Source: a virus
Reading direction: 5' to 3' (one strand)
IMG/VR virus record: IMGVR_UViG_3300045988_112441
Length of the DNA: 64,000 nt
The notes under the pieces were generated by a model that was not told the DNA's origin, made no database searches, and worked only from the letters and a program-made list of their open reading frames with translations. Below, one piece after another: positions 1 to 60,289 of this stretch. Made by a program: the position numbers and the translations under genes. How positions within the stretch are numbered: position 1 is the first letter of the stretch; every line of letters starts with the position of its first letter.

Positions 1-78
1 GGTAAGACCTCCTGCTTATCTGTGTGAGTTTCAAAATTAGGTATATTATACCTTACTTCCTACTTTTTTTCAAGATGG

Positions 79-224: not shown

Positions 225-1391
225 TTAGGAAACAATCCTATTAAACTGTTTGATTGCCTCTGCTTCGGTCTCTTCTTTTAAGATATGAGTATACACTTTC
301 AAGGTTATATCGGGCGACGAATGTCCCATGAGGTATTGAACCGATTTAACATCCATCTTGGCTTTGACAAGCCGTGTACAATATTCGTGGCGCATACTAT
401 GGGCAGTGACTTCAGGCAATGGTTCATCATGGCAACTATTATAGGCTTTGATTAGTCCTTCAAAAATTCTAACAAGGTTTTTATTCGTATAGGGCCTTCC
501 AGTTTTTGCTATAAACAAGAAGTCGGCCTGCCCATCTATTATTCTCTCTGCTTTTACAATCGGACGTTGTTTTATCGCTTCTTCAAAAGCAATGATGGCG
601 TCTTTAGATAATGGGATAGTCCTTATCCCACTTTCTGTTTTTGTAGGTGCTAAATACAGCCCGCCGCTCTTTCCATCGTACACCATCTGATGAGATATAG
701 TAACAGTGTTGTTATCAAAATCAAATGACTTTTTTGTTAGCCCGCATAATTCTCCTGCTCGAAGTCCTGTCTCGTGCAAAAGCATCACCATGCCAACATG
801 CCTTTTATATACTCGACTAGATTTCATGAACTTGATCAGATTTTGATACTGCTCTTCTGTTAATATTTCTTTTTCTTTTGAGTCACATTTGACAACTGTA
901 TTTAATTTAAAAACGAATGGATTTCTAGGAATTATATTCTCATCAAACATTTCTTGAAATGCCGGTCTAGCTAAAGACATGACATCTCTGATTGTTGTAT
1001 AACAATATCCTTCGTTATCCAATTCTCGTGCAAATTGTTTTACATCGCGCACTAAAATATCAGTTGCATTCATTTCCCCAATTAGGTGATTCTGAAAGAT
1101 TTTCAAATTCTGCGATTTTGTTTTATAGCTGCTTGGCCTAATAGTAAGTTTTGTTTCTTCGAGATGTCTTTTTGCTAATTGGTATACTGTGATTTTTGAA
1201 GTAGACGTTGTACTCCAATTAAGTTTTTCTTGGATTTCAGCTTCTTTTTCTCTCAATTCTTTAAGTGAAGTGGCGTATATTATTGAGCGTTTTCCAAGTT
1301 TGTTTGTCCATCTATATTGGTATCTCCCATCCTTTCTCTGGCTCTCGCCGTCTTTTAAAACTTTGCCATTATTATCTTTACGTCTTATCAT
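225..1391 (-). CDS. int: Tyrosine site-specific integrase
   Basis: 388 aa. C-terminal tyrosine-recombinase R..H-x-x-R..Y motif (HSMRHEYCTRLV...LMGHSS...ITLKVYTHI). Confidence 0.85.
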   Translation of the reverse strand: MIRRKDNNGKVLKDGESQRKDGRYQYRWTNKLGKRSIIYATSLKELREKEAEIQEKLNWSTTSTSKITVYQLAKRHLEETKLTIRPSSYKTKSQNLKIFQNHLIGEMNATDILVRDVKQFARELDNEGYCYTTIRDVMSLARPAFQEMFDENIIPRNPFVFKLNTVVKCDSKEKEILTEEQYQNLIKFMKSSRVYKRHVGMVMLLHETGLRAGELCGLTKKSFDFDNNTVTISHQMVYDGKSGGLYLAPTKTESGIRTIPLSKDAIIAFEEAIKQRPIVKAERIIDGQADFLFIAKTGRPYTNKNLVRIFEGLIKAYNSCHDEPLPEVTAHSMRHEYCTRLVKAKMDVKSVQYLMGHSSPDITLKVYTHILKEETEAEAIKQFNRIVS

Positions 1392-2495: not shown

Positions 2496-2906
2496 TTATA
2501 AGAATGTCTGAAATAGTTTCCTAAGCTTTGCGCTGAGAGCGTTATTTTCAAGATATGACGAAGAATTCAATCTGAACTTTCTGTACGGAACGTTTTCAGA
2601 TGATAGATAAACATCATAATTGATGTCGTCTATTGTGAAGGACTCATTAGTGACAACTTTGGCGGTCGGTAAAAGACATTCAAGCAATGAAATATCATAA
2701 TTGAAATCCTGACAAAGAGATTTACCAAAATCATCAATATCTGGAATCTTCTCATTATCGATATAGTCCCAAATATATTTTATTCCAGTTAGACCATCTT
2801 TCATGAGGCTATCCGTTTTTACCATTTTGTGTAGGTCTGTATCAATCAAAATAAATCTACTATAGAATCCAGAAAATCCTCCATTAGACTGTAAAAGCAG
2901 CTTCAT
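2496..2906 (-). CDS. Hypothetical protein
   Basis: ORF track; co-directional packed array. Confidence 0.4.
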   Translation of the reverse strand: MKLLLQSNGGFSGFYSRFILIDTDLHKMVKTDSLMKDGLTGIKYIWDYIDNEKIPDIDDFGKSLCQDFNYDISLLECLLPTAKVVTNESFTIDDINYDVYLSSENVPYRKFRLNSSSYLENNALSAKLRKLFQTFL

Positions 2907-3148
2907 ATGTTTTCTCCTTTATACTCACTACTACTATACAGAATATTTCGTAGCTGATTGATAAAACCATCAACAACGCATTCACTGCAATCTAAATTAA
3001 CCGTACACATGCCACAGCTATCAGTATAATGGTGCAGTAGATCTTCGATTGATCTTTTATAATATTCTGTTTGGTCTTTATAAAACCCTAATTCTACCGT
3101 AAATTCGCCGCTTTTATTTAACGTATTACCGCTATTATTTTTACTCAT
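2903..3148 (-). CDS. Hypothetical Cys-rich protein
   Basis: 81 aa with CGMC...CSEC. Confidence 0.35.
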   Translation of the reverse strand: MSKNNSGNTLNKSGEFTVELGFYKDQTEYYKRSIEDLLHHYTDSCGMCTVNLDCSECVVDGFINQLRNILYSSSEYKGENI

Positions 3149-3156
3149 TTATTACC

Positions 3157-3615
3157 TCAAATAAGATGAAGAAGCCATTGTTTGCTCCAATCGATATTTT
3201 TCATGTTCACCCAGCATTTCACGTCGCCATCTTTGAATAAATATTTCTGATTGAACTTTCTTAATGTAAAATGTGGCTCGCAGTCCGGCCATGAAAATTT
3301 GCCGGGACATCTCCACACAAGATATAAATCACCCGGAATTAGGTTTGACTTATCTGTTGTCATACAGCTCAACAAAAGTGTTTTAACGAATGGATTGTAT
3401 ATATCGACATAGGCTACTACGTTTAAACATGGGCGCATGACGTTATTTAGATAGGGATGAATGAAGTTTTTTGAGATTCTAAATCCAGGCTTAAACCCAT
3501 CTATATCAATCCAATATGCGATTTTCCATCTTGGAGTCCAATCTCCGTAATCTATTATCGTAAGGTATGGTCGGTAGTTCACAAAACAAATTTTACCATC
3601 CAAGTTCAACACCAC
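3157..3615 (-). CDS. Hypothetical Trp-rich protein
   Basis: ORF track. Confidence 0.4.
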   Translation of the reverse strand: MVLNLDGKICFVNYRPYLTIIDYGDWTPRWKIAYWIDIDGFKPGFRISKNFIHPYLNNVMRPCLNVVAYVDIYNPFVKTLLLSCMTTDKSNLIPGDLYLVWRCPGKFSWPDCEPHFTLRKFNQKYLFKDGDVKCWVNMKNIDWSKQWLLHLI

Positions 3616-10280: not shown

Positions 10281-10553
10281 CTAGAACGGCACTTTATCAG
10301 AAACAGGCATTATACAAAAACTCCTTAACGGAACTCCGTTCACCTGATTGGTTTGATGGGATACCGTTCCATACATTTCACCGTTTTTGCTTTCAGACCA
10401 GTGATATGTTACTGTTCTTTCTATTTCGTAATAAGTATCGTCACCAATTACCTCGCAAGACGCCCATTTGTCGGTCTCTACAAGAAGCAAGTATTTACCA
10501 GGCAAATTGAATGGAGGTTCAATATGAGAATAGTAATTATATGTATCTTTCAT
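10281..10553 (-). CDS. Hypothetical protein
   Basis: The ORF-track start at 10565 appears to be GTG; an ATG with an AGGTGG RBS sits at 10553. Confidence 0.35.
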   Translation of the reverse strand: MKDTYNYYSHIEPPFNLPGKYLLLVETDKWASCEVIGDDTYYEIERTVTYHWSESKNGEMYGTVSHQTNQVNGVPLRSFCIMPVSDKVPF

Positions 10554-10702
10554 AACGAACCCCACCTTTCACGGCCACAGGTGTCACAGACGAAGTGCCA
10601 CTTATCATGCCAACTATGGTTACCGTCATAGAGCATCACACCACCACATCGACTGCACTCGGGAAGGAACCAACGGAGTAGACGTTTCAAAAACTTAATC
10701 AT
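10550..10702 (-). CDS. Unlisted 50-aa zinc-ribbon ORF
   Basis: MIKFLKRLLRWFLPECSRCGG...CDTCGRERWGSL with an AAGGAG RBS. Fills the gap between neighbouring genes. Shorter than 60 aa, so absent from the ORF track. Confidence 0.35.
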   Translation of the reverse strand: MIKFLKRLLRWFLPECSRCGGVMLYDGNHSWHDKWHFVCDTCGRERWGSL

Positions 10703-10704
10703 CT

Positions 10705-11064
10705 TTACTCCTTCTTCTCAATAATATCAGCCCTTTCCATAGTCTCGAAGAAATCTTCCATAATGGCATCAGCCATCTTACCAGGAATTTCGGGAAGATC
10801 TAGTCCAAAGTCTCTAAAAGCACAGTGCAGACAGCCCCATGGAGTTAAGGCGAATTTTTCATAAAAATCATCATCGTCATCGTCAGGGTCGTTTTCTTTT
10901 GAGTCCAACATATTCGTCTCGTACTCAAACTGTCTCACTTCATTCTTAGTGAGCCATTTCTGCCACTTGCCACAAACAGAACAATACAGACCAATCTGGC
11001 TACCTTTGCTCTGGATAAAGAAGGATTTACTACCACACTTACATTTGAAGTCCATCTCAGCCAC
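10705..11064 (-). CDS. Zinc-ribbon protein with an acidic tract
   Basis: CKCGS...CSVCGKW; DPDDDDDD. Confidence 0.4.
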   Translation of the reverse strand: MAEMDFKCKCGSKSFFIQSKGSQIGLYCSVCGKWQKWLTKNEVRQFEYETNMLDSKENDPDDDDDDFYEKFALTPWGCLHCAFRDFGLDLPEIPGKMADAIMEDFFETMERADIIEKKE

Positions 11065-11257
11065 CTGCCTTTTCTACATTCTGAACCATGCAGCTCGTAC
11101 CGGGATGAGATTTTTCGAAACGATAATGCGCTTTATTCATAGCATCATTCTGATCCTGTGCCTTGACCATATATGTGTTGAATGCCTGATGTCCATCATC
11201 GTAGTACATTATTTCAACAGACCAATAATTCATATAGCTCCTTTCATGCCACCACAC
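11057..11257 (-). CDS. Hypothetical protein
   Basis: ORF track. Confidence 0.35.
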   Translation of the reverse strand: MWWHERSYMNYWSVEIMYYDDGHQAFNTYMVKAQDQNDAMNKAHYRFEKSHPGTSCMVQNVEKAGG

Positions 11258-40383: not shown

Positions 40384-40464
40384 TGGTGGGACATGTCGGA
40401 CTTGAACCGTGATACATATGCTCAGTTATGAGCTGAGTTCTCTAACCAATTGAGATAATGTCCC
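40384..40464 (-). tRNA. tRNA-Met/Ile2 (anticodon CAT), atypical
   Basis: Perfect acceptor (GGGACAT/ATGTCCC), D-arm and anticodon arm (CTCAG-CTCATAA-CTGAG), and an encoded CCA. The variable region is about 9 nt and the T-stem has only 3 bp (mismatches at 49:65 and 50:64). Confidence 0.45.
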
Positions 40465-40653
40465 ATAAAAACCAGTTAAATAGCTGCAACTATTCAACTG
40501 GGCACCTTCCTTATAAAACACTATTGCATCTATATCATATAGACGAGGAAGGAATAACAGCGATGCACATTTCCTATATCTCGCCCCTTTCGGGGTGGTA
40601 TCTCGCACAGGCGCGGCCGGATCTGACCGCCAAAGATCCTACCCATACGAGAT

Positions 40654-40728
40654 TGGAGCAGCGAAAGGTAGTCGAAACCTCATCCTCAGCTTGGAAGGCT
40701 GATGTACTAGCCGTTGTACGACCGCCGC
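40654..40728 (-). tRNA. tRNA-Gly (anticodon TCC) with a G3:U70 pair
   Basis: Full cloverleaf: acceptor GCGGCGG/TCGCTGC with G3:U70 and G7:U66, D-arm GTAC-AACGGCTA-GTAC, anticodon loop CTTCCAA, T-arm GAGGT-TTCGACT-ACCTT, U73 and CCA. Confidence 0.6.
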
Positions 40729-40831
40729 ATGAAAACCCAGCTTACAAAACACTACTGCACCATCACTGGCGAGCTGGGAATAATAGTGGTCAAAGGATAT
40801 CAACAAACGGTACGCAACCATTCTATGACCG

Positions 40832-40916
40832 TGGTGCCACAGGCGAGACTCAAACTCGCAAGCCTTTCGGCGTCTACCCCTAAAATAGATGTGTAGGTCA
40901 ATTCCACCACTGTGGC
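40832..40916 (-). tRNA. tRNA-Leu (anticodon TAG), class II
   Basis: 85 nt. Acceptor GCCACAG/CTGTGGC, anticodon stem TCTAT/GTAGA, loop TTTAGGG, variable arm CGCCGAAAGGCTT, T-arm GCGAG-TTTGAGT-CTCGC, A73 and CCA. Confidence 0.65.
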
Positions 40917-40923
40917 ATATAAA

Positions 40924-40997
40924 TTGCGCCGGAAAGAATCGAACTTTCGCAATCGGGACTTCAAAGGACCCTGCCTTAACCGCTTGGCTACGACGCA
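40924..40997 (-). tRNA. tRNA-Gln (anticodon TTG)
   Basis: Acceptor TGCGTCG/CGGCGCA, Gln-like D-arm GCCAAGCGGTTAAGGC, anticodon loop CTTTGAA with a U:U mismatch in the stem, T-arm GAAAG-TTCGATT-CTTTC. No encoded CCA. Confidence 0.6.
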
Positions 40998-41093
40998 TTA
41001 TATACTTGGCTTGCTGTGTCCTATTGCTCCATTTTTGGAGAGCCAAGAATAATAGGAAAGGTATTTTATGAAAAGCATGTTGGGAAACCAACT

Positions 41094-41166
41094 GGTCGAA
41101 AACGTCAGATTTGAACTGCAACTCCTGCTCCCAAAGCAGGCGTGTTACCATTACACCACGTTCTCG
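41094..41166 (-). tRNA. tRNA-Pro (anticodon TGG), atypical
   Basis: C1:G72 acceptor (CGAGAAC/GTTTTCG), A73 and CCA. Anticodon arm CCTGC-TTTGGGA-GCAGG. One extra nucleotide at positions 8-9, and a weak T-stem. Confidence 0.5.
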
Positions 41167-41169
41167 ATA

Positions 41170-41257
41170 TGGTGCCGCAGGTGGGATTCAAACCCACGAT
41201 CCATATTTCAGGCGTCCCGGTTTAAGCGGGAAATGTATGTCACTCCATCACTGCGGC
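41170..41257 (-). tRNA. tRNA-Leu (anticodon TAA), class II-like
   Basis: 88 nt. Acceptor GCCGCAG/CTGCGGC, anticodon stem TCCCG/CGGGA, loop CTTAAAC, 17-nt variable region, T-arm GTGGG-TTTGAAT-CCCAC, A73 and CCA. Confidence 0.5.
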
Positions 41258-41301: not shown

Positions 41302-42198
41302 TTAATTTTCCTCTTTACTGTTCATATCTAATTTTCTGTATGGTAAATCATAATACTTGCACCATTTACGTATGGCATTTCCTGATACTCCATATTTTCT
41401 TCCAACATCTTGAAAGGACATTGAAGCTGTGTCTACCATCAATTGTTCTTTATCAGGAAAATCAATGCGTTTACTGTAAGGATTTCCTTTTAAACAATTT
41501 TTACAGAGACATCCTTTTGCACGCGGACTCATTTCTTTTCCGCATATTGAACAATATTTGATTTTTCTTCTTTTTCTTTCTTTTTTCTCACGGATAACCT
41601 TTTCACGTGGAATTTGAGTTACGTTGTTTTCAATCATTAGTTGCCTTGCTTTGTCATACCACACTCTCGCAGAATAATAAATTCCAACTTTTTCAAGAGC
41701 GGCATTTATAGTTGATGTTGTTTTTAACGCATCAAGAAAATCTTTATCGCTCACAGTCTTGTATTTCCCGATATTATTTTTGCACCAATTATCAGTTTGT
41801 GCATGACAATTCGGGCAAAGCAACTGAAGATTGTCTAATTCATTATTTATGTGGTTTCCGTCAATATGATGTACTTGCAATGGAATCTGTTTGCCCATCT
41901 ATTCAGAGTTTCCACAACATTCACACTTATATGGTTTGATAGAAAGAAGTGCGGATTTTAAATCCTTTATTCGTCTTCCATTTTTAAAACGAGACAAATC
42001 CACGTTCCCTTTATTCTAGCCCTGCCCAGTGAAATGAGAAGTATTTATATTGTGCGCTTTTGCATAATCTTGAAGTACGTGATTCGTACTTCCACCATTT
42101 TTTGAATATCCAAGCTTCTCCGCAACCGCAGCCTAACTTTTGCTTTCCTCAAAAGCTTGCTCAATTTCTTCTTTTGTAAGTTTATCAATCTTTTTCAT
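41302..42198 (-). CDS. HNH homing endonuclease as one continuous 299-codon frame with three in-frame TAG codons
   Basis: GGAGG RBS before the ATG at 42198. Frame reads MKKIDKLTKEEIEQAFEESKS-TAG-38 aa (KLGYSKNGGSTNHVLQDYAKAHNI...)-TAG-38 aa (...KPYKCECCGNSE)-TAG-MGKQIPLQVHHIDGNHINNELDNLQLLCPNCH... TAGs at 42133-35, 42016-18 and 41899-901. No other stops or frameshifts; ORF-track coordinates confirm they share one frame. Confidence 0.7.
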
Positions 42199-42390
42199 AA
42201 AATGCCTCCAACATCTAATAAATGAATATTCGGACTCTGGTGCCAAGGACGGTATTCGAAACCGCATGTGTTTCCACAGCGAGGTTTGGGCTCGCCCTGT
42301 CTCCCATTTGCAGCACCTTGGCATATATTGCCGGTCTTTCCCGGCTGTCAGCCCCGCTCAGGGCATTTTCGGAGGAAGAAAATGTCTTAA

Positions 42391-43132: not shown

Positions 43133-45345
43133 TCAGCTCTTCTGCTGACTTGCGTAGAACTCATTCCGCAGCTGAATAATACCCTTTTTGCAGAAAGATT
43201 CCTGGTCTTTCTCTCGTTGTTCACGCATCCAACCATAAAACAGGTTATCCTCAGCAGTAAATAACTTTGCGGTATTTTCATAATAGCCACGTTTCTGAAC
43301 GCTCTGCATGACACCACGCAAGAACTTCCAGTGCTTATAATAAGGAAGCTTCATCTTAAACATGAAATTGTTGCTGTCTCGCAAAACAAAGCCTTCAACG
43401 TGTTCAAAGCCATGATGCAGATAGTTCTCGTTCATGACTTCCTCGTACCAAGGATAGAATTCACTCCAGTTCTCAAAGGTCTTAACCTTCTCCTTAATCT
43501 GCAGATGACACTTCTCAGCTACACGCTTCAGATCATCGTAATCCATCACACTGAAGTTCATATCATTCGCAACAATATCCAGCAAAACAATATGCGGTTT
43601 CTTATATTCAATGATATGAGCATCATTCACAGGATCAATCACCTCGAAGATGATAGAACCATTCTCTTTTGCAACTTCTTTCAGATTCTTACGGTCTTCA
43701 TCAGAAGTCGTATCCATGAGAATCTTTCGGAACATATCTGCAAAAGGCCCTTCAGGAGTGGATTTACTTGCAATGAACAGACCATCCTGTTCTGCATCAT
43801 ACGAAATGATACCAAGAAATCCATTCTCTTTTAAATATGCAGTCACCGGGAACTTCAAAGTGTTCTGTAGGTTTCCAATTCTCGTTTCATTCCGCTCATC
43901 AACCGCAAAGAATTTATCATAGCTTCGAGCTACAATCTTATTCGTCTTTGTGTTAATGAACAATCCCCTTGCTTTGGTAGAAACCTCATCCCAATGCTTC
44001 TTATAAAATGCTTCACGAGAGAAGTTGAAAGAAGAAATATCTCCGAATCGCTTCTCAAACACATATTTGCTTTGACGCATCTTACCAACAAGTTCTGCGT
44101 TATCGAACTCAGTTTTCATTTCAACGGCAGTTTCAGTCTTTGGCTCCTCTTTTCGGAACACATCGTTCTTGGTTTCTACACACTTGATTGACTGACCGTG
44201 TTCAAGTTCCACGCAACGAAGATATCCGCCAAACTCGATTTTTCCTTCGAGGTTGTAGCACCGATGCCCCATATCAATAGGAACATCCTGCACATTCCGA
44301 TGACCGAAGATCTGAATGTAGCTATCCGGCATCGATTTTTCCCAAGACTCAGCCACGGTTAGCATATCAGGATAGCGACCTACACCTTTAATCATCTGAT
44401 CAGCAGATACAAAAGGAAGAAAATAAGGCAGATAGCTCAGGCCACCATGACTTACAAAATACCGCTTACCATCATACTCAAAGTAGGCACACTGGCCGAC
44501 TCTGGAATAGATCTTACGAGCAGTGTTCTTGTCAATACCGGCTTTAAAGAGCTGCGGACGAGTGTAGTTTGCAAACTCTTCACTCTGAACCGGTTCATCA
44601 TGCCCCACTTGTTCAGACAACGCTCGTGATTCCCTTCCAAAAGGATCACATTCTTGCGGTTGTTATTTACAACATCACACAAGAACTTGAATACTTCAAC
44701 GTTTTCGATGCCACGATCGAGATAATCACCAACGAAGATATAAAGTTCGTCGTCCTTCATCTCACCAAGGTATTCACTTAAACAAGTATAGCAGCCATGA
44801 ATATCACCGATGACATGAACCTTCTTCCACTGGTTGAAGTCATTCGGATAGTAGTTCAAATCGGACATCACATCCGTAGTAGAAGGAAGAACCGTCACGC
44901 CAGAAGGAACTTTTTGAGTAGCAAACCGAGCGTACATCTTATCAATGGCCGCTTCAGGAACTCGCTTCAGCCATTCTCTCTGAGCGTTTCTTCGTTTGCA
45001 TTCCTCGATCGGAAGATCCGTCATGTCAATAACATACATCCGATAACGATACTGTTTTGCAAGATTCTTATAACGATTCATTTCGACCGTCTTGGAATTC
45101 GTTGCATCAATCACGGTAAACTCACCATGACTCATACGCACCTCAAGCAGTTTGAAAAGCATCTCCCATACAACATCATCATTCTGCGGAGAAATCTCCA
45201 TCTGCCCGGCAGGTGTTTCCTGTGCGCTCTGGCACATAAGGCGAAGTGTATCAGCACTCAATACGTACTGCTCAAGATTATGCTCTTTAATATAGGTGGA
45301 CTTCCCACAACCTGGTGCTCCACGGAACAGCAAAAGCGTTCTCAT
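43133..45345 (-). CDS. Pnkp-like polynucleotide kinase/metallophosphatase/ligase-like adenylyltransferase, encoded in two overlapping frames
   Basis: ORF 44452..45345 has a P-loop kinase (FRGAPGCGKST) plus GDIHG/GDYLDRG/GNHE. ORF 43133..44620, in the -1 frame, continues with FVSHGG, GHRN and a KENGF ligase-like motif. The 169-nt overlap contains T_TTA_AAG in phase (44542-44548) and a G4 run. Confidence 0.6.
44542..44548 (-). promoter_or_regulatory. Candidate -1 ribosomal frameshift heptamer T_TTA_AAG inside the Pnkp overlap
   Basis: In the zero frame of the upstream ORF (tct tta aag). A -1 slip enters the downstream frame (ttt aaa gcc...). Confidence 0.3.
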
Positions 45346-58865: not shown

Positions 58866-59360
58866 TTATACCTTACTAAAATTTGCATTAAAAAGAATCT
58901 CATTACCATATTCAGTAAGAGTATCCTTAAACCACTTTTCGTTCTTTTTCCACCACGACTCAGCTTGTTGCGAAGTCAATACAATTCCTTTTTTCTTCGC
59001 TGCATCAATAACGTCATCGATACACCAACGAGTTTCAGCAAACTAATACTGATTTACGTCATCATCCTTTTCCTGTTCGTCTTCAATATAGTTATGGCAA
59101 TAGTTGGTGTAGAAATCCACATCAAAAAGTGTGATAGTCATATCATTGCCGCTTAATTCACGTTCAACGTCAGCTACTTCTTCTCTGAGATACAGCTCAG
59201 ACATAATACCGTCTTCATGTTCCTGAATCCATTTCTCTGTAATATTGAACTTTTTCGCCAGTTCATCGACCTCAAACACCCATGTGCCATAATTCGTGTT
59301 TTCAGTGCCATACTTCACCATATAATCAGCAATCTGACGTTCCATCATATTATCATCCAT
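58866..59360 (-). CDS. Acidic protein (paralog of 63089..63412) with a TAG stop followed by a 58-codon in-frame protein-like extension
   Basis: The ORF-track product (105 aa, ...FDVDFYTNYCHNY...VNQY) ends at TAG 59043-45. The same frame continues: FAETRWCIDDVIDAAKKKGIVLTSQQAESWWKKNEKWFKDTLTEYGNEILFNANFSKV, ending at TAA 58866-68. The extension has no ATG of its own and exactly fills the intergenic gap. Confidence 0.4.
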
Positions 59361-59389: not shown

Positions 59390-60289
59390 TCAAAAGCGCC
59401 AGCTAGTTGTAACAACCTTTTTTGCTTCGCCTTCTTCGTATTTGTTATTTTTAATAGCTTCTTCTAAACCATTACCTGCATTGTAGGCCATACCATTTTG
59501 AACAAGATCATCTCCAAGAAAACCACCACAAGAATCAATTTCAACCCAATTGGATTCGGCGCTTTCTTCGACATCATCTTCTACAAAACCATCCTGTTCA
59601 TAAAGCGTATACCCATACACTTCACCAGTCAGATAGTTGTTATATGCCTCAACGTCAAGTTCCATATTTTTTTCAGCAATAGCTTTATTCTTTTCGTTAA
59701 AGTCAGAAAGAACAGTAACAATCCATCCAGCGCAACTTGAATCAAACGTATCATTGTAAGGATATGTCCGATCTCCGCAGCTCATCGTGATTACGCTGTG
59801 TTCGTAAATCCAAAGAGGAAGCCAAACCACTTTCTTTTCAAGCAATTTCATACAATCACGAATGGAAAAATCTCCTCTTGAATACTGAACAAGATCATCA
59901 TAAAACAGATTTCTCCAAGAATATTCTTCTTCATTTGGAATCCAATCGTTTGACTCAAAATCATTGACGCAAATTGCCCAATAATCATTATCGTCATCCT
60001 GGTCGTGATATTGAACTGCACATGTATCAAATAACTTTTTGTTTACAAGTGCATCAAGAACTTCCTTGTCGTCGCAATACTTCCAAACAAGGTTATTCCA
60101 AAAACTTTCCGGTGTATCTGCTTCAATAAAGTCTCCAAGTTTATAATTCCCATAAAAGCAAGCCATAATAGAATCATGGTCATAATCACGAGGGTTACAC
60201 TCTTCGCCATTGTCTGCCCAAATATGTAAACAATAATTTATATCGTTGTCTGTCCATTTTATGGTTTCATTATCATAGCAATATAACAT
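59390..60289 (-). CDS. Highly acidic protein (possible DNA-mimic/anti-restriction candidate)
   Basis: 299 aa, very rich in D/E with aromatic residues; no catalytic motif. Confidence 0.4.
   Translation of the reverse strand: MLYCYDNETIKWTDNDINYCLHIWADNGEECNPRDYDHDSIMACFYGNYKLGDFIEADTPESFWNNLVWKYCDDKEVLDALVNKKLFDTCAVQYHDQDDDNDYWAICVNDFESNDWIPNEEEYSWRNLFYDDLVQYSRGDFSIRDCMKLLEKKVVWLPLWIYEHSVITMSCGDRTYPYNDTFDSSCAGWIVTVLSDFNEKNKAIAEKNMELDVEAYNNYLTGEVYGYTLYEQDGFVEDDVEESAESNWVEIDSCGGFLGDDLVQNGMAYNAGNGLEEAIKNNKYEEGEAKKVVTTSWRF

Follow-up and report, generated by a model that had tools for sequence, protein, structure and literature searches.

Phages whose genetic code differs from that of their host have been described with two reassignments only, that of TAG as a glutamine codon and that of TGA as a tryptophan codon (Borges et al., 10.1101/2021.08.26.457843). 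The first of these, translation code 15, is that of the crAss-like, Lak and phAss-1 gut phages (10.1101/2021.08.26.457843; PMC9523058; PMC10607447). In code-4 phages, the presence of an intron endonuclease loaded with TGA codons has been interpreted as a means of delaying its production (Borges et al., 10.1101/2021.08.26.457843). The gene considered here encodes a putative HNH homing endonuclease with three in-frame TAG codons, and lies in a stretch of 64,000 nucleotides from a virus (IMG/VR virus record IMGVR_UViG_3300045988_112441), the whole of which is referred to below as the window. Free-standing HNH homing endonucleases occur in the tRNA clusters of T4-like and T5-like phages, and the amber suppressor su+7 (supU) of Escherichia coli is a tRNA-Trp with its anticodon changed from CCA to CUA, which inserts mainly glutamine. 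A full-text literature search for the decoding of TAG or UAG as tryptophan returned only the hepatitis delta editing site, and a literature search for Faecalibacterium phages with suppressors returned no paper; no earlier description of TAG as a probable tryptophan codon in viruses of gut bacteria was found.

Tryptophan is the most likely reading of the three TAG codons of the HNH gene, with a suppressor tRNA made by the phage as the decoder. The explanation as a whole, in which the gene is intact and under selection and TAG means tryptophan by way of a phage tRNA(CUA) derived from tRNA-Trp, appears very probable on comparative grounds. Retranslation of the minus strand from the ATG (42198-42196) to the TAA (41304-41302) gave one 299-codon frame in which the three TAGs are the only internal stops, with no TAA, TGA or frameshift; this agrees on every coordinate with the original prediction of a single frame with exactly three TAGs and nothing else wrong with it, and the ribosome-binding site predicted before the ATG is there too (Table 1). 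The product scored 22.6 bits against the Pfam HNH profile (PF01844; cutoff 21.4) over residues 92-134, scored under the cutoff against the HNH_3 profile, and has 1414 homologs. It consists of an N-terminal region resembling a helix-turn-helix (HTH), a nuclease core with CxxC and HH..N..N..CPNCH, a C-terminal zinc ribbon and an HTH. The protein had been described from the start as a coherent HNH endonuclease with Cys/His motifs and a zinc ribbon, and all of these motifs are present (CECCG, HHIDGNH, N..N, CPNCH and a C-terminal CxxC...CxxC); the beta-beta-alpha-metal core (His ... Asn ... His/Asn) lies between two Cys pairs, CECCG ... HHIDGNHINNELDNLQLLCPNCH, an arrangement that is invariant in the alignment. 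About 158 single-nucleotide routes lead from the sense codons of the gene to a stop codon and only three to six of them are TGG to TAG changes, yet all the stops observed are of this type, a pattern that exceeds chance. Identical TAGs occur in independent assemblies from other samples and are, therefore, not the read or assembly errors that the original prediction had allowed for.

Table 1. Features of the window mentioned in the text (positions in nucleotides from the first letter of the window).
Feature	Position	Strand	Remarks
Putative HNH homing-endonuclease gene	41302-42198	(-)	298 aa with TAG as sense; 299-codon frame
In-frame TAG no. 1 of the HNH gene	42133-42135	(-)	Codon 22
In-frame TAG no. 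2 of the HNH gene	42016-42018	(-)	Codon 61, motif GQGWNKG
In-frame TAG no. 3 of the HNH gene	41899-41901	(-)	Codon 100, motif CxxCG..EW.G
Shine-Dalgarno GGAGG	42205-42209	(-)	6 nt 5' of the HNH ATG; read in the sequence
tRNA-Leu(CAA)	42238-42322	(-)	Upstream border of the insertion site; conserved at all related loci
tRNA-Leu(UAA)	41170-41257	(-)	Downstream border of the insertion site
Other tRNAs of cluster 1: Pro(UGG), Gln(UUG), Leu(UAG), Gly(UCC), Met(CAU)	40384-41166	(-)	
Second window gene with in-frame TAG	58866-59360	(-)	164 aa; homolog named DUF2624 by one source
In-frame TAG of the 164-aa gene	59043-59045	(-)	Codon 106
Host DNA	1-31		Prophage/host att junction at ~31
Integrase gene	225-1391	(-)	

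The residues found at the three positions in related proteins point to tryptophan. In the best 120 of the 1414 homologs, position 61 is W in 91 of 113 residues (R in 11 and "Q" in seven), position 100 is W in 111 of 117 ("Q" in six), and position 22 is Y in 73, F in 13, W in three and "Q" in five, this last column having TGG in the nearest relatives and Tyr or Phe in distant homologs. The original prediction had left the choice between Gln, Tyr and Trp to such an alignment, which gives Trp at 61 and 100 and an aromatic residue at 22. The "Q" entries are artefactual, as the nearest full-length HNH proteins in the database come from gene calls made with code 15: at the W columns of P0001, P0004 and P0013, the "Q" is a TAG in the DNA checked (L001, L002 and L003), and the same presumably holds for P0005, P0007-9 and P0012. 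Code-11 calls on long contigs give a 198-amino acid (aa) C-terminal fragment of HNH, which is found for the window allele on 78 contigs. Another database protein, P0010 (355 aa, from a 77-kb contig), has an unrelated 195-aa N-terminus followed by the last ~160 aa of HNH, with one difference from the window copy; it may be a recombinant, the remnant of a truncated endonuclease or a chimeric assembly.

HNH loci in IMG/VR were sought with a tRNA-anchored DNA pattern, and the copies collected comprise 12 distinct gene sequences from independent samples. Their 34 TAG codons all fall within five columns (22, 61, 100, 138 and 180), in combinations that vary by lineage; the alternative is TGG, with TAT/TAC also found at column 138 and TTA once at column 22, and no TAG is present in the conserved Gln columns of any of the 12 copies. 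TAG is kept at 61 and 100 between copies of just 50-60% identity (L273, L365 and L372). Between the window and L005 (89% amino-acid identity), the ratio of nonsynonymous to synonymous substitution (dN/dS) was 0.07 over codons 1-100, the part of the frame that precedes or separates the TAGs, and 0.10 over the other codons; HNH pairs at ~50-60% identity had a synonymous divergence (pS) saturated at ~0.75 and a nonsynonymous divergence (pN) of ~0.25. Such strong purifying selection on the segments between the TAGs argues that the frame is translated through them and, taken together with the absence of other stops and indels, excludes both decay and an expression restricted to the C-terminal 198 aa.

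In-frame TAGs are not confined to the HNH gene in this phage group. They occur also in the gene at 58866-59360, in the large terminase (TerL), in a 341-aa late protein (p341), an 815-aa protein (p815) and a ~560-aa late protein (p564), and in a 180-aa tail-region gene. The gene at 58866-59360 appears under code 11 as a 105-aa open reading frame (ORF) followed by a 180-nt "gap" with no ATG start; the position of its TAG, which is also present in L009 and L011, is W in 103 and L in three of 106 same-length homologs. Codon 63 of TerL is TAG in 26 genomes and TGG in 50, with TAG or TGG at codon 56 in four genomes; codon 89 of p341 is TAG in 35 and TGG in 115, and codon 365 of p815 is TAG in 22 and TGG in 67. 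In p564, a TAG is fixed in 39 genomes, a diverged ortholog having W, and the 180-aa tail-region gene contains two to four TAGs, of which two are present in every close homolog and another alternates with W; in L015, this gene has two further TAGs where others have TAT. The partner of TAG at orthologous sites is, overall, mainly TGG and more rarely TAT, TAC, TTC or TTA, and it is never CAA or CAG at internal positions.

This recoding is sparse. The window has 331 TGG codons and four credible in-frame TAGs, and its coding density rises from 92.9% to 93.6%, without a clear gain, when TAG is taken as a sense codon; density-based code callers would, therefore, miss it. These figures rule out a heavy recoding of the window. 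In L101, coding density seemed low on the upstream side of the tape-measure gene; this, too, was discounted, as an artefact of ORF chaining, because the tape-measure ORF extends past the slice. The original prediction had read the three TAGs as amber suppression or TAG reassignment, or as a sign of a gene silenced until a suppressor is at hand, and had alluded to the recoded gut phages; the suppression itself is supported, but the genome is not heavily recoded, and the residue appears to be Trp rather than the Gln of those phages.

The tRNA cluster next to the HNH gene had been reported to carry a tRNA-Gln(UUG) and no CUA anticodon, and the seven tRNAs of the window bear this out. Inspection of the ARAGORN structures and of the Rfam matches ruled out a suppressor within this local cluster as well as a wrongly assigned anticodon in tRNA-Leu(CAA). 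The remainder of the genome was followed in related IMG/VR contigs, in which a second tRNA cluster lies directly upstream of TerL, ~19 kb past the right end of the window, and 80 related loci (L377-L456) were read at this cluster. The slot between tRNA-Ser(UGA) and tRNA-Met(CAU) contains a tRNA(CUA) in 48 of the 80 genomes and a tRNA-Trp(CCA) in seven; the amber-decoding tRNA that had been sought elsewhere in the genome was, thus, found in related genomes, but not in the window. ARAGORN alone detected a tRNA(CUA) of 76-77 nt in 35 of the 80, and the addition by pattern of two types with odd T-loops brought the number to 48. There are six sequence types of tRNA(CUA), all of which share with tRNA-Trp the acceptor stem GCGCCYR/UGGGCGU (G1·U72), G73 and the anticodon loop CU-CNA-AA, read as CUCUAAA in tRNA(CUA) and CUCCAAA in tRNA-Trp(CCA). 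They match the phage tRNA-Trp at 65-78% identity and the phage tRNA-Gln(UUG) at 54-61%. Judged by its sequence (closest relative, same slot, G73 and a Trp-type anticodon loop), tRNA(CUA) is a derivative and an allelic replacement of the phage tRNA-Trp(CCA). Minimum-energy folds gave a cloverleaf for three of the four types folded, including both odd-T-loop types and excluding the commonest type. The second cluster has more than 40 arrangements among strains (at ~600-2900 of each of these loci) and contains Thr(UGU), Thr(CGU), Tyr(GUA), Asn(GUU), Ser(ACU), Ser(UGA), Lys(UUU), Trp(CCA)/CUA and Met(CAU).

The TAG codons and tRNA(CUA) tend to be found in the same genomes, and TAG in TerL and in HNH is all but limited to genomes that carry tRNA(CUA). 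TAG is present at TerL codon 63 in 25 of 48 CUA genomes and in one of 28 others, this one being a locus broken at a contig end (Fisher p = 9e-6), and at p341 codon 89 in 24 of 47 CUA genomes and two of 30 others (p = 5e-5), one of the two again being a locus broken at a contig end. TAG-bearing genomes apparently devoid of a suppressor are mostly false negatives of ARAGORN (the two odd-T-loop types) or contig-end loci, L396 excepted. Both the HNH region and the second cluster could be read in 13 genomes. All five of those with a TAG-bearing HNH carry tRNA(CUA), and four of these five have the exact 22/61/100 pattern of the window. Five without tRNA(CUA), which carry tRNA-Trp(CCA) or neither of the two, have, at the HNH site, either a 295-nt spacer (two) or a different, TAG-free, 236-aa HNH_3-like endonuclease (three); the remainder are two CUA genomes with an empty 76-nt site and one locus too short to read.

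A count of TAG as a terminator had also been suggested with the original prediction, and TAG proves almost never to end a gene of this phage. Of ~117 window genes, 0-3 end in TAG, and among these cases one is the W codon at 59043 and another lies in the att region. The sole other plausible TAG-ended gene, at 10281-10565 (-), continues with nine sense codons to a TGA in frame (…KVPF*EATVWKRNK*), and its TAG may also be read through. TAG accounts for 1.4-2.9% of long-ORF terminators across the 80 related loci, irrespective of tRNA class, and for ~11% in Faecalibacterium loci, a frequency at which the count in the window would be improbable (P(<=1 | n=117, p=0.11) = 2e-5). The host thus uses the standard code, and a host with a reassigned TAG is ruled out; the depletion of TAG as a terminator indicates that the phage lineage has long avoided it as a stop.

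Given that the host reads TAG as an ordinary stop, TAG-bearing genes would yield full-length products only in the presence of the suppressor tRNA. The tRNA(CUA), encoded in the cluster heading the terminase and structural block, would decode TAG as Trp, probably after charging with Trp by the host tryptophanyl-tRNA synthetase (TrpRS). This cluster heads a block that diverges from the early genes, and it is purely from this position that we infer that the suppressor might be made in lytic growth. Its production at that stage would allow HNH, TerL, several tail and baseplate genes and a small early gene to be completed, whose translation the TAGs would keep locked in the lysogen. The genome from which the window comes is expected to carry tRNA(CUA) itself. 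More generally, this widespread group of temperate Faecalibacterium phages, of ~120-140 kb, probably uses TAG as a tryptophan codon through diversified suppressors derived from tRNA-Trp, at a sparse and strain-polymorphic stage at which TAG and TGG, and CUA and CCA, segregate.

Several observations weigh against this explanation. None of the seven tRNAs of the 64-kb window has a CUA anticodon, and 25 of the 80 related genomes have neither tRNA(CUA) nor tRNA-Trp(CCA) in the second cluster. ARAGORN failed to detect two of the six tRNA(CUA) types, the T-loops of which are non-canonical, and one of these (L429 and L445) was missed by Rfam too at the gathering score. L396 has TAG at p341 codon 89, with no tRNA(CUA) or tRNA-Trp detected in its second cluster, and is unexplained. 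At HNH position 22, distant homologs mostly have Tyr, and some TAGs stand for Tyr codons (the two TAT to TAG changes in L015 and HNH column 138), so that what can strictly be said is that an aromatic residue is tolerated. Finally, the amino acid is deduced from codon-substitution patterns only, and the E. coli tRNA-Trp with the C35 to U change (su+7) is charged largely with Gln.

Because of the su+7 precedent, a reading as Gln, or a mixed one, retains a low probability. An ordinary recoding of the code-15 type, with tRNA(CUA) charged with Gln and Gln at the three Trp positions of HNH, would be in line with the sole TAG reassignment reported for phages; gene callers already put Q in these genes, U35 is a major identity element for glutaminyl-tRNA synthetase (GlnRS), and G73 is common to tRNA-Gln. 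The codons argue otherwise, since TAG alternates with TGG in TerL, p341, p815 and the HNH columns, and aligns with Trp or another aromatic residue rather than with Gln; CAA and CAG are never opposite an internal TAG, and the conserved Gln columns of the 12 HNH copies are free of it. The tRNA is nearer to the phage tRNA-Trp than to tRNA-Gln and sits in the tRNA-Trp slot, and dozens of genomes would have to tolerate Gln, with no harm, at Trp sites of the terminase and HNH that are nearly invariant. Decoding as Gln is, on balance, unlikely.

If the prophage of the window itself lacked a suppressor, HNH and the gene at 58866-59360 would be silent in it, in need of a co-infecting carrier of the suppressor, or decaying. 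The tRNA content of the window and of the 25 relatives without tRNA(CUA) would fit such a state, as would the 1-nt deletion in a neighbouring Pnkp/RNA-ligase-like gene, through which this copy is partly damaged. However, all five readable genomes with a TAG-bearing HNH have tRNA(CUA), the four with the TAG pattern of the window among them, and the C-terminal fragment of the window allele is the commonest form (78 contigs), making a prophage without suppressor quite improbable. It is highly improbable that the gene is dead and that its TAGs are nonsense mutations produced by a GG to AG (APOBEC3G-like) or other G to A process: TGG to TAG is a single G to A transition in a GG context, and the HNH TAG columns other than 138 do alternate with TGG (once TTA at column 22), but the dN/dS of 0.07 across and between the TAGs and the persistence of TAG at 61 and 100 at 50-60% identity, with no other stop or indel, rule out a pseudogene or hypermutation. 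Other damage is not in excess, T to G changes (TAT to TAG) occur too, and TAG is found in the essential terminase, where it co-occurs with tRNA(CUA). Editing of UAG to UIG, read as UGG, as at the amber/W site of hepatitis delta, would also give Trp, but the three TAG sites have no common sequence context and a matching tRNA(CUA) exists that explains the pattern, so that editing, like sequencing or assembly errors, which identical TAGs in many independent assemblies speak against, has a negligible probability.

The HNH gene lies between two tRNA-Leu genes. In related phages, the distance between tRNA-Leu(CAA) and tRNA-Leu(UAA) is 76 nt (empty site), 295 nt, 765 nt (with an HNH_3-like 236-aa gene) or ~980 nt (with an HNH of the window type), the alternative states having been read in L356, L361, L368, L364, L376, L359 and L363. 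The 236-aa HNH_3-type endonuclease found at the site is unrelated to the window HNH and has ordinary TGG codons. Presence or absence and replacement at one conserved site, in genomes that are otherwise collinear, indicate a homing-endonuclease hot spot with competing endonucleases. The HNH protein is, thus, probably a mobile free-standing homing endonuclease, with predicted cleavage and copying activities.

The window is part of an integrated temperate prophage of Faecalibacterium prausnitzii of ~120-140 kb (related IMG/VR genomes, 118-141 kb). Contigs with an identical integrase run into bacterial genes (L007 and L008) or, in the excised form (L006), into repressor, endolysin and tail genes, and the flanking host gene is 100% identical to that of F. 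prausnitzii UT1. The window genes are all on the minus strand and occupy ~93% of the sequence under the standard code; they encode a DnaE-type polymerase, helicases, RecJ, a ligase, NrdD, methyltransferases and an integrase. The prophage is very common, a single window protein being listed for 1728 blocks of the assembly collection. The G+C content of the phage is 40.7%, against ~60% in the host (~57-64% locally in the host flank of L007/L008), a gap that fits the possession of ~13-15 phage tRNAs for A/U-ending codons. A DNA search of a phage database returned no annotated close relative, and, by DnaE, Clostridium phage Amboise (47%) is the best relative among cultured phages.

Some other genes of the window and its relatives deserve mention. 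The polynucleotide-kinase/phosphatase (Pnkp) and RNA-ligase-like gene (733 aa; window 43133-45345, (-)) is split into two frames near 44602 by its 1-nt deletion (GTGGGG-CATG as against GTGGGGACATG), which makes it a pseudogene or reflects a sequencing error; its counterpart in L005 has AAA_33, Metallophos and RNA_lig_T4_1 domains and ends in TAG, where the window has CAG and three more codons. The window ORF at 59390-60289 (-) encodes 299 aa, a length equal to that of the HNH frame, and has no Pfam match. One related genome, L398, has a group I catalytic intron (Rfam RF00028, 79.7 bits) at 10822-11167 (+), just 3' of a 274-aa query gene. A ToxN-type toxin gene (PF13958) is found in L009, at 2771-3253 (-), on the opposite strand of the early region ~7 kb past the right end of the window; it is also present in L011 and is not in L010.

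Stop recoding in phages is known only as TAG to Gln and TGA to Trp or Gly, and a TAG to Trp reading would be a new natural variant of the code. Its sparse and polymorphic state would provide a view, in nature, of a code change that is early or facultative, the segregating TAG/TGG and CUA/CCA alleles showing how such a change starts, and would show how a prophage locks the translation of its terminase, tail and homing-endonuclease genes until a suppressor is made. Existing annotations are affected, as these genes are either split under code 11 (198-, 105- and 33-aa fragments) or given Gln at Trp sites under code 15, pipelines assigning Gln by default to any amber-suppressor phage; public databases would thus contain wrong terminase, tail-protein and endonuclease sequences for a Faecalibacterium prophage that is very common. 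The host is a keystone commensal of the gut, and the gating of a terminase and a homing endonuclease by a suppressor in its temperate phage would be directly testable, since F. prausnitzii lysogens can be cultured, and a natural amber suppressor inserting Trp would interest genetic-code engineers.

Like the code-15 gut phages, the Faecalibacterium phages have a standard-code host, a phage tRNA(CUA) in 48 of the 80 related genomes, TAG codons in terminase, tail and late genes and an avoidance of TAG as a terminator, and the proposed role is again a gating of late-gene translation. Unlike in those phages, TAG here would mean Trp and the tRNA is apparently descended from tRNA-Trp; recoding is sparse (~1% of Trp codons, in a handful of genes, with the near-flat coding density given above) and strain-polymorphic (TAG or TGG; CUA, CCA or none), in a temperate prophage of a Firmicute. 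The code-4 phages Agate and Jade, with TGA to Trp, resemble this group in that a stop codon replaces TGG and that a homing endonuclease of their early region, encoded in a group I intron, is rich in the recoded stop; the codon here is, however, TAG rather than TGA, and the parts of the genomes read showed neither a TrpRS nor a release factor of the phage. The suppressor shares with su+7 the C35 to U change in a tRNA-Trp body with G73, but su+7 is a laboratory mutant of a host tRNA, whereas tRNA(CUA) is a natural phage gene family of six types for which the codon evidence points to Trp. Finally, like the HNH endonucleases of the T4 and T5 type, the HNH gene of the window stands alone between tRNA genes and shows presence, absence and replacement at one intergenic site; unlike them, it has in-frame ambers that would tie its expression to a suppressor tRNA encoded elsewhere in the phage.

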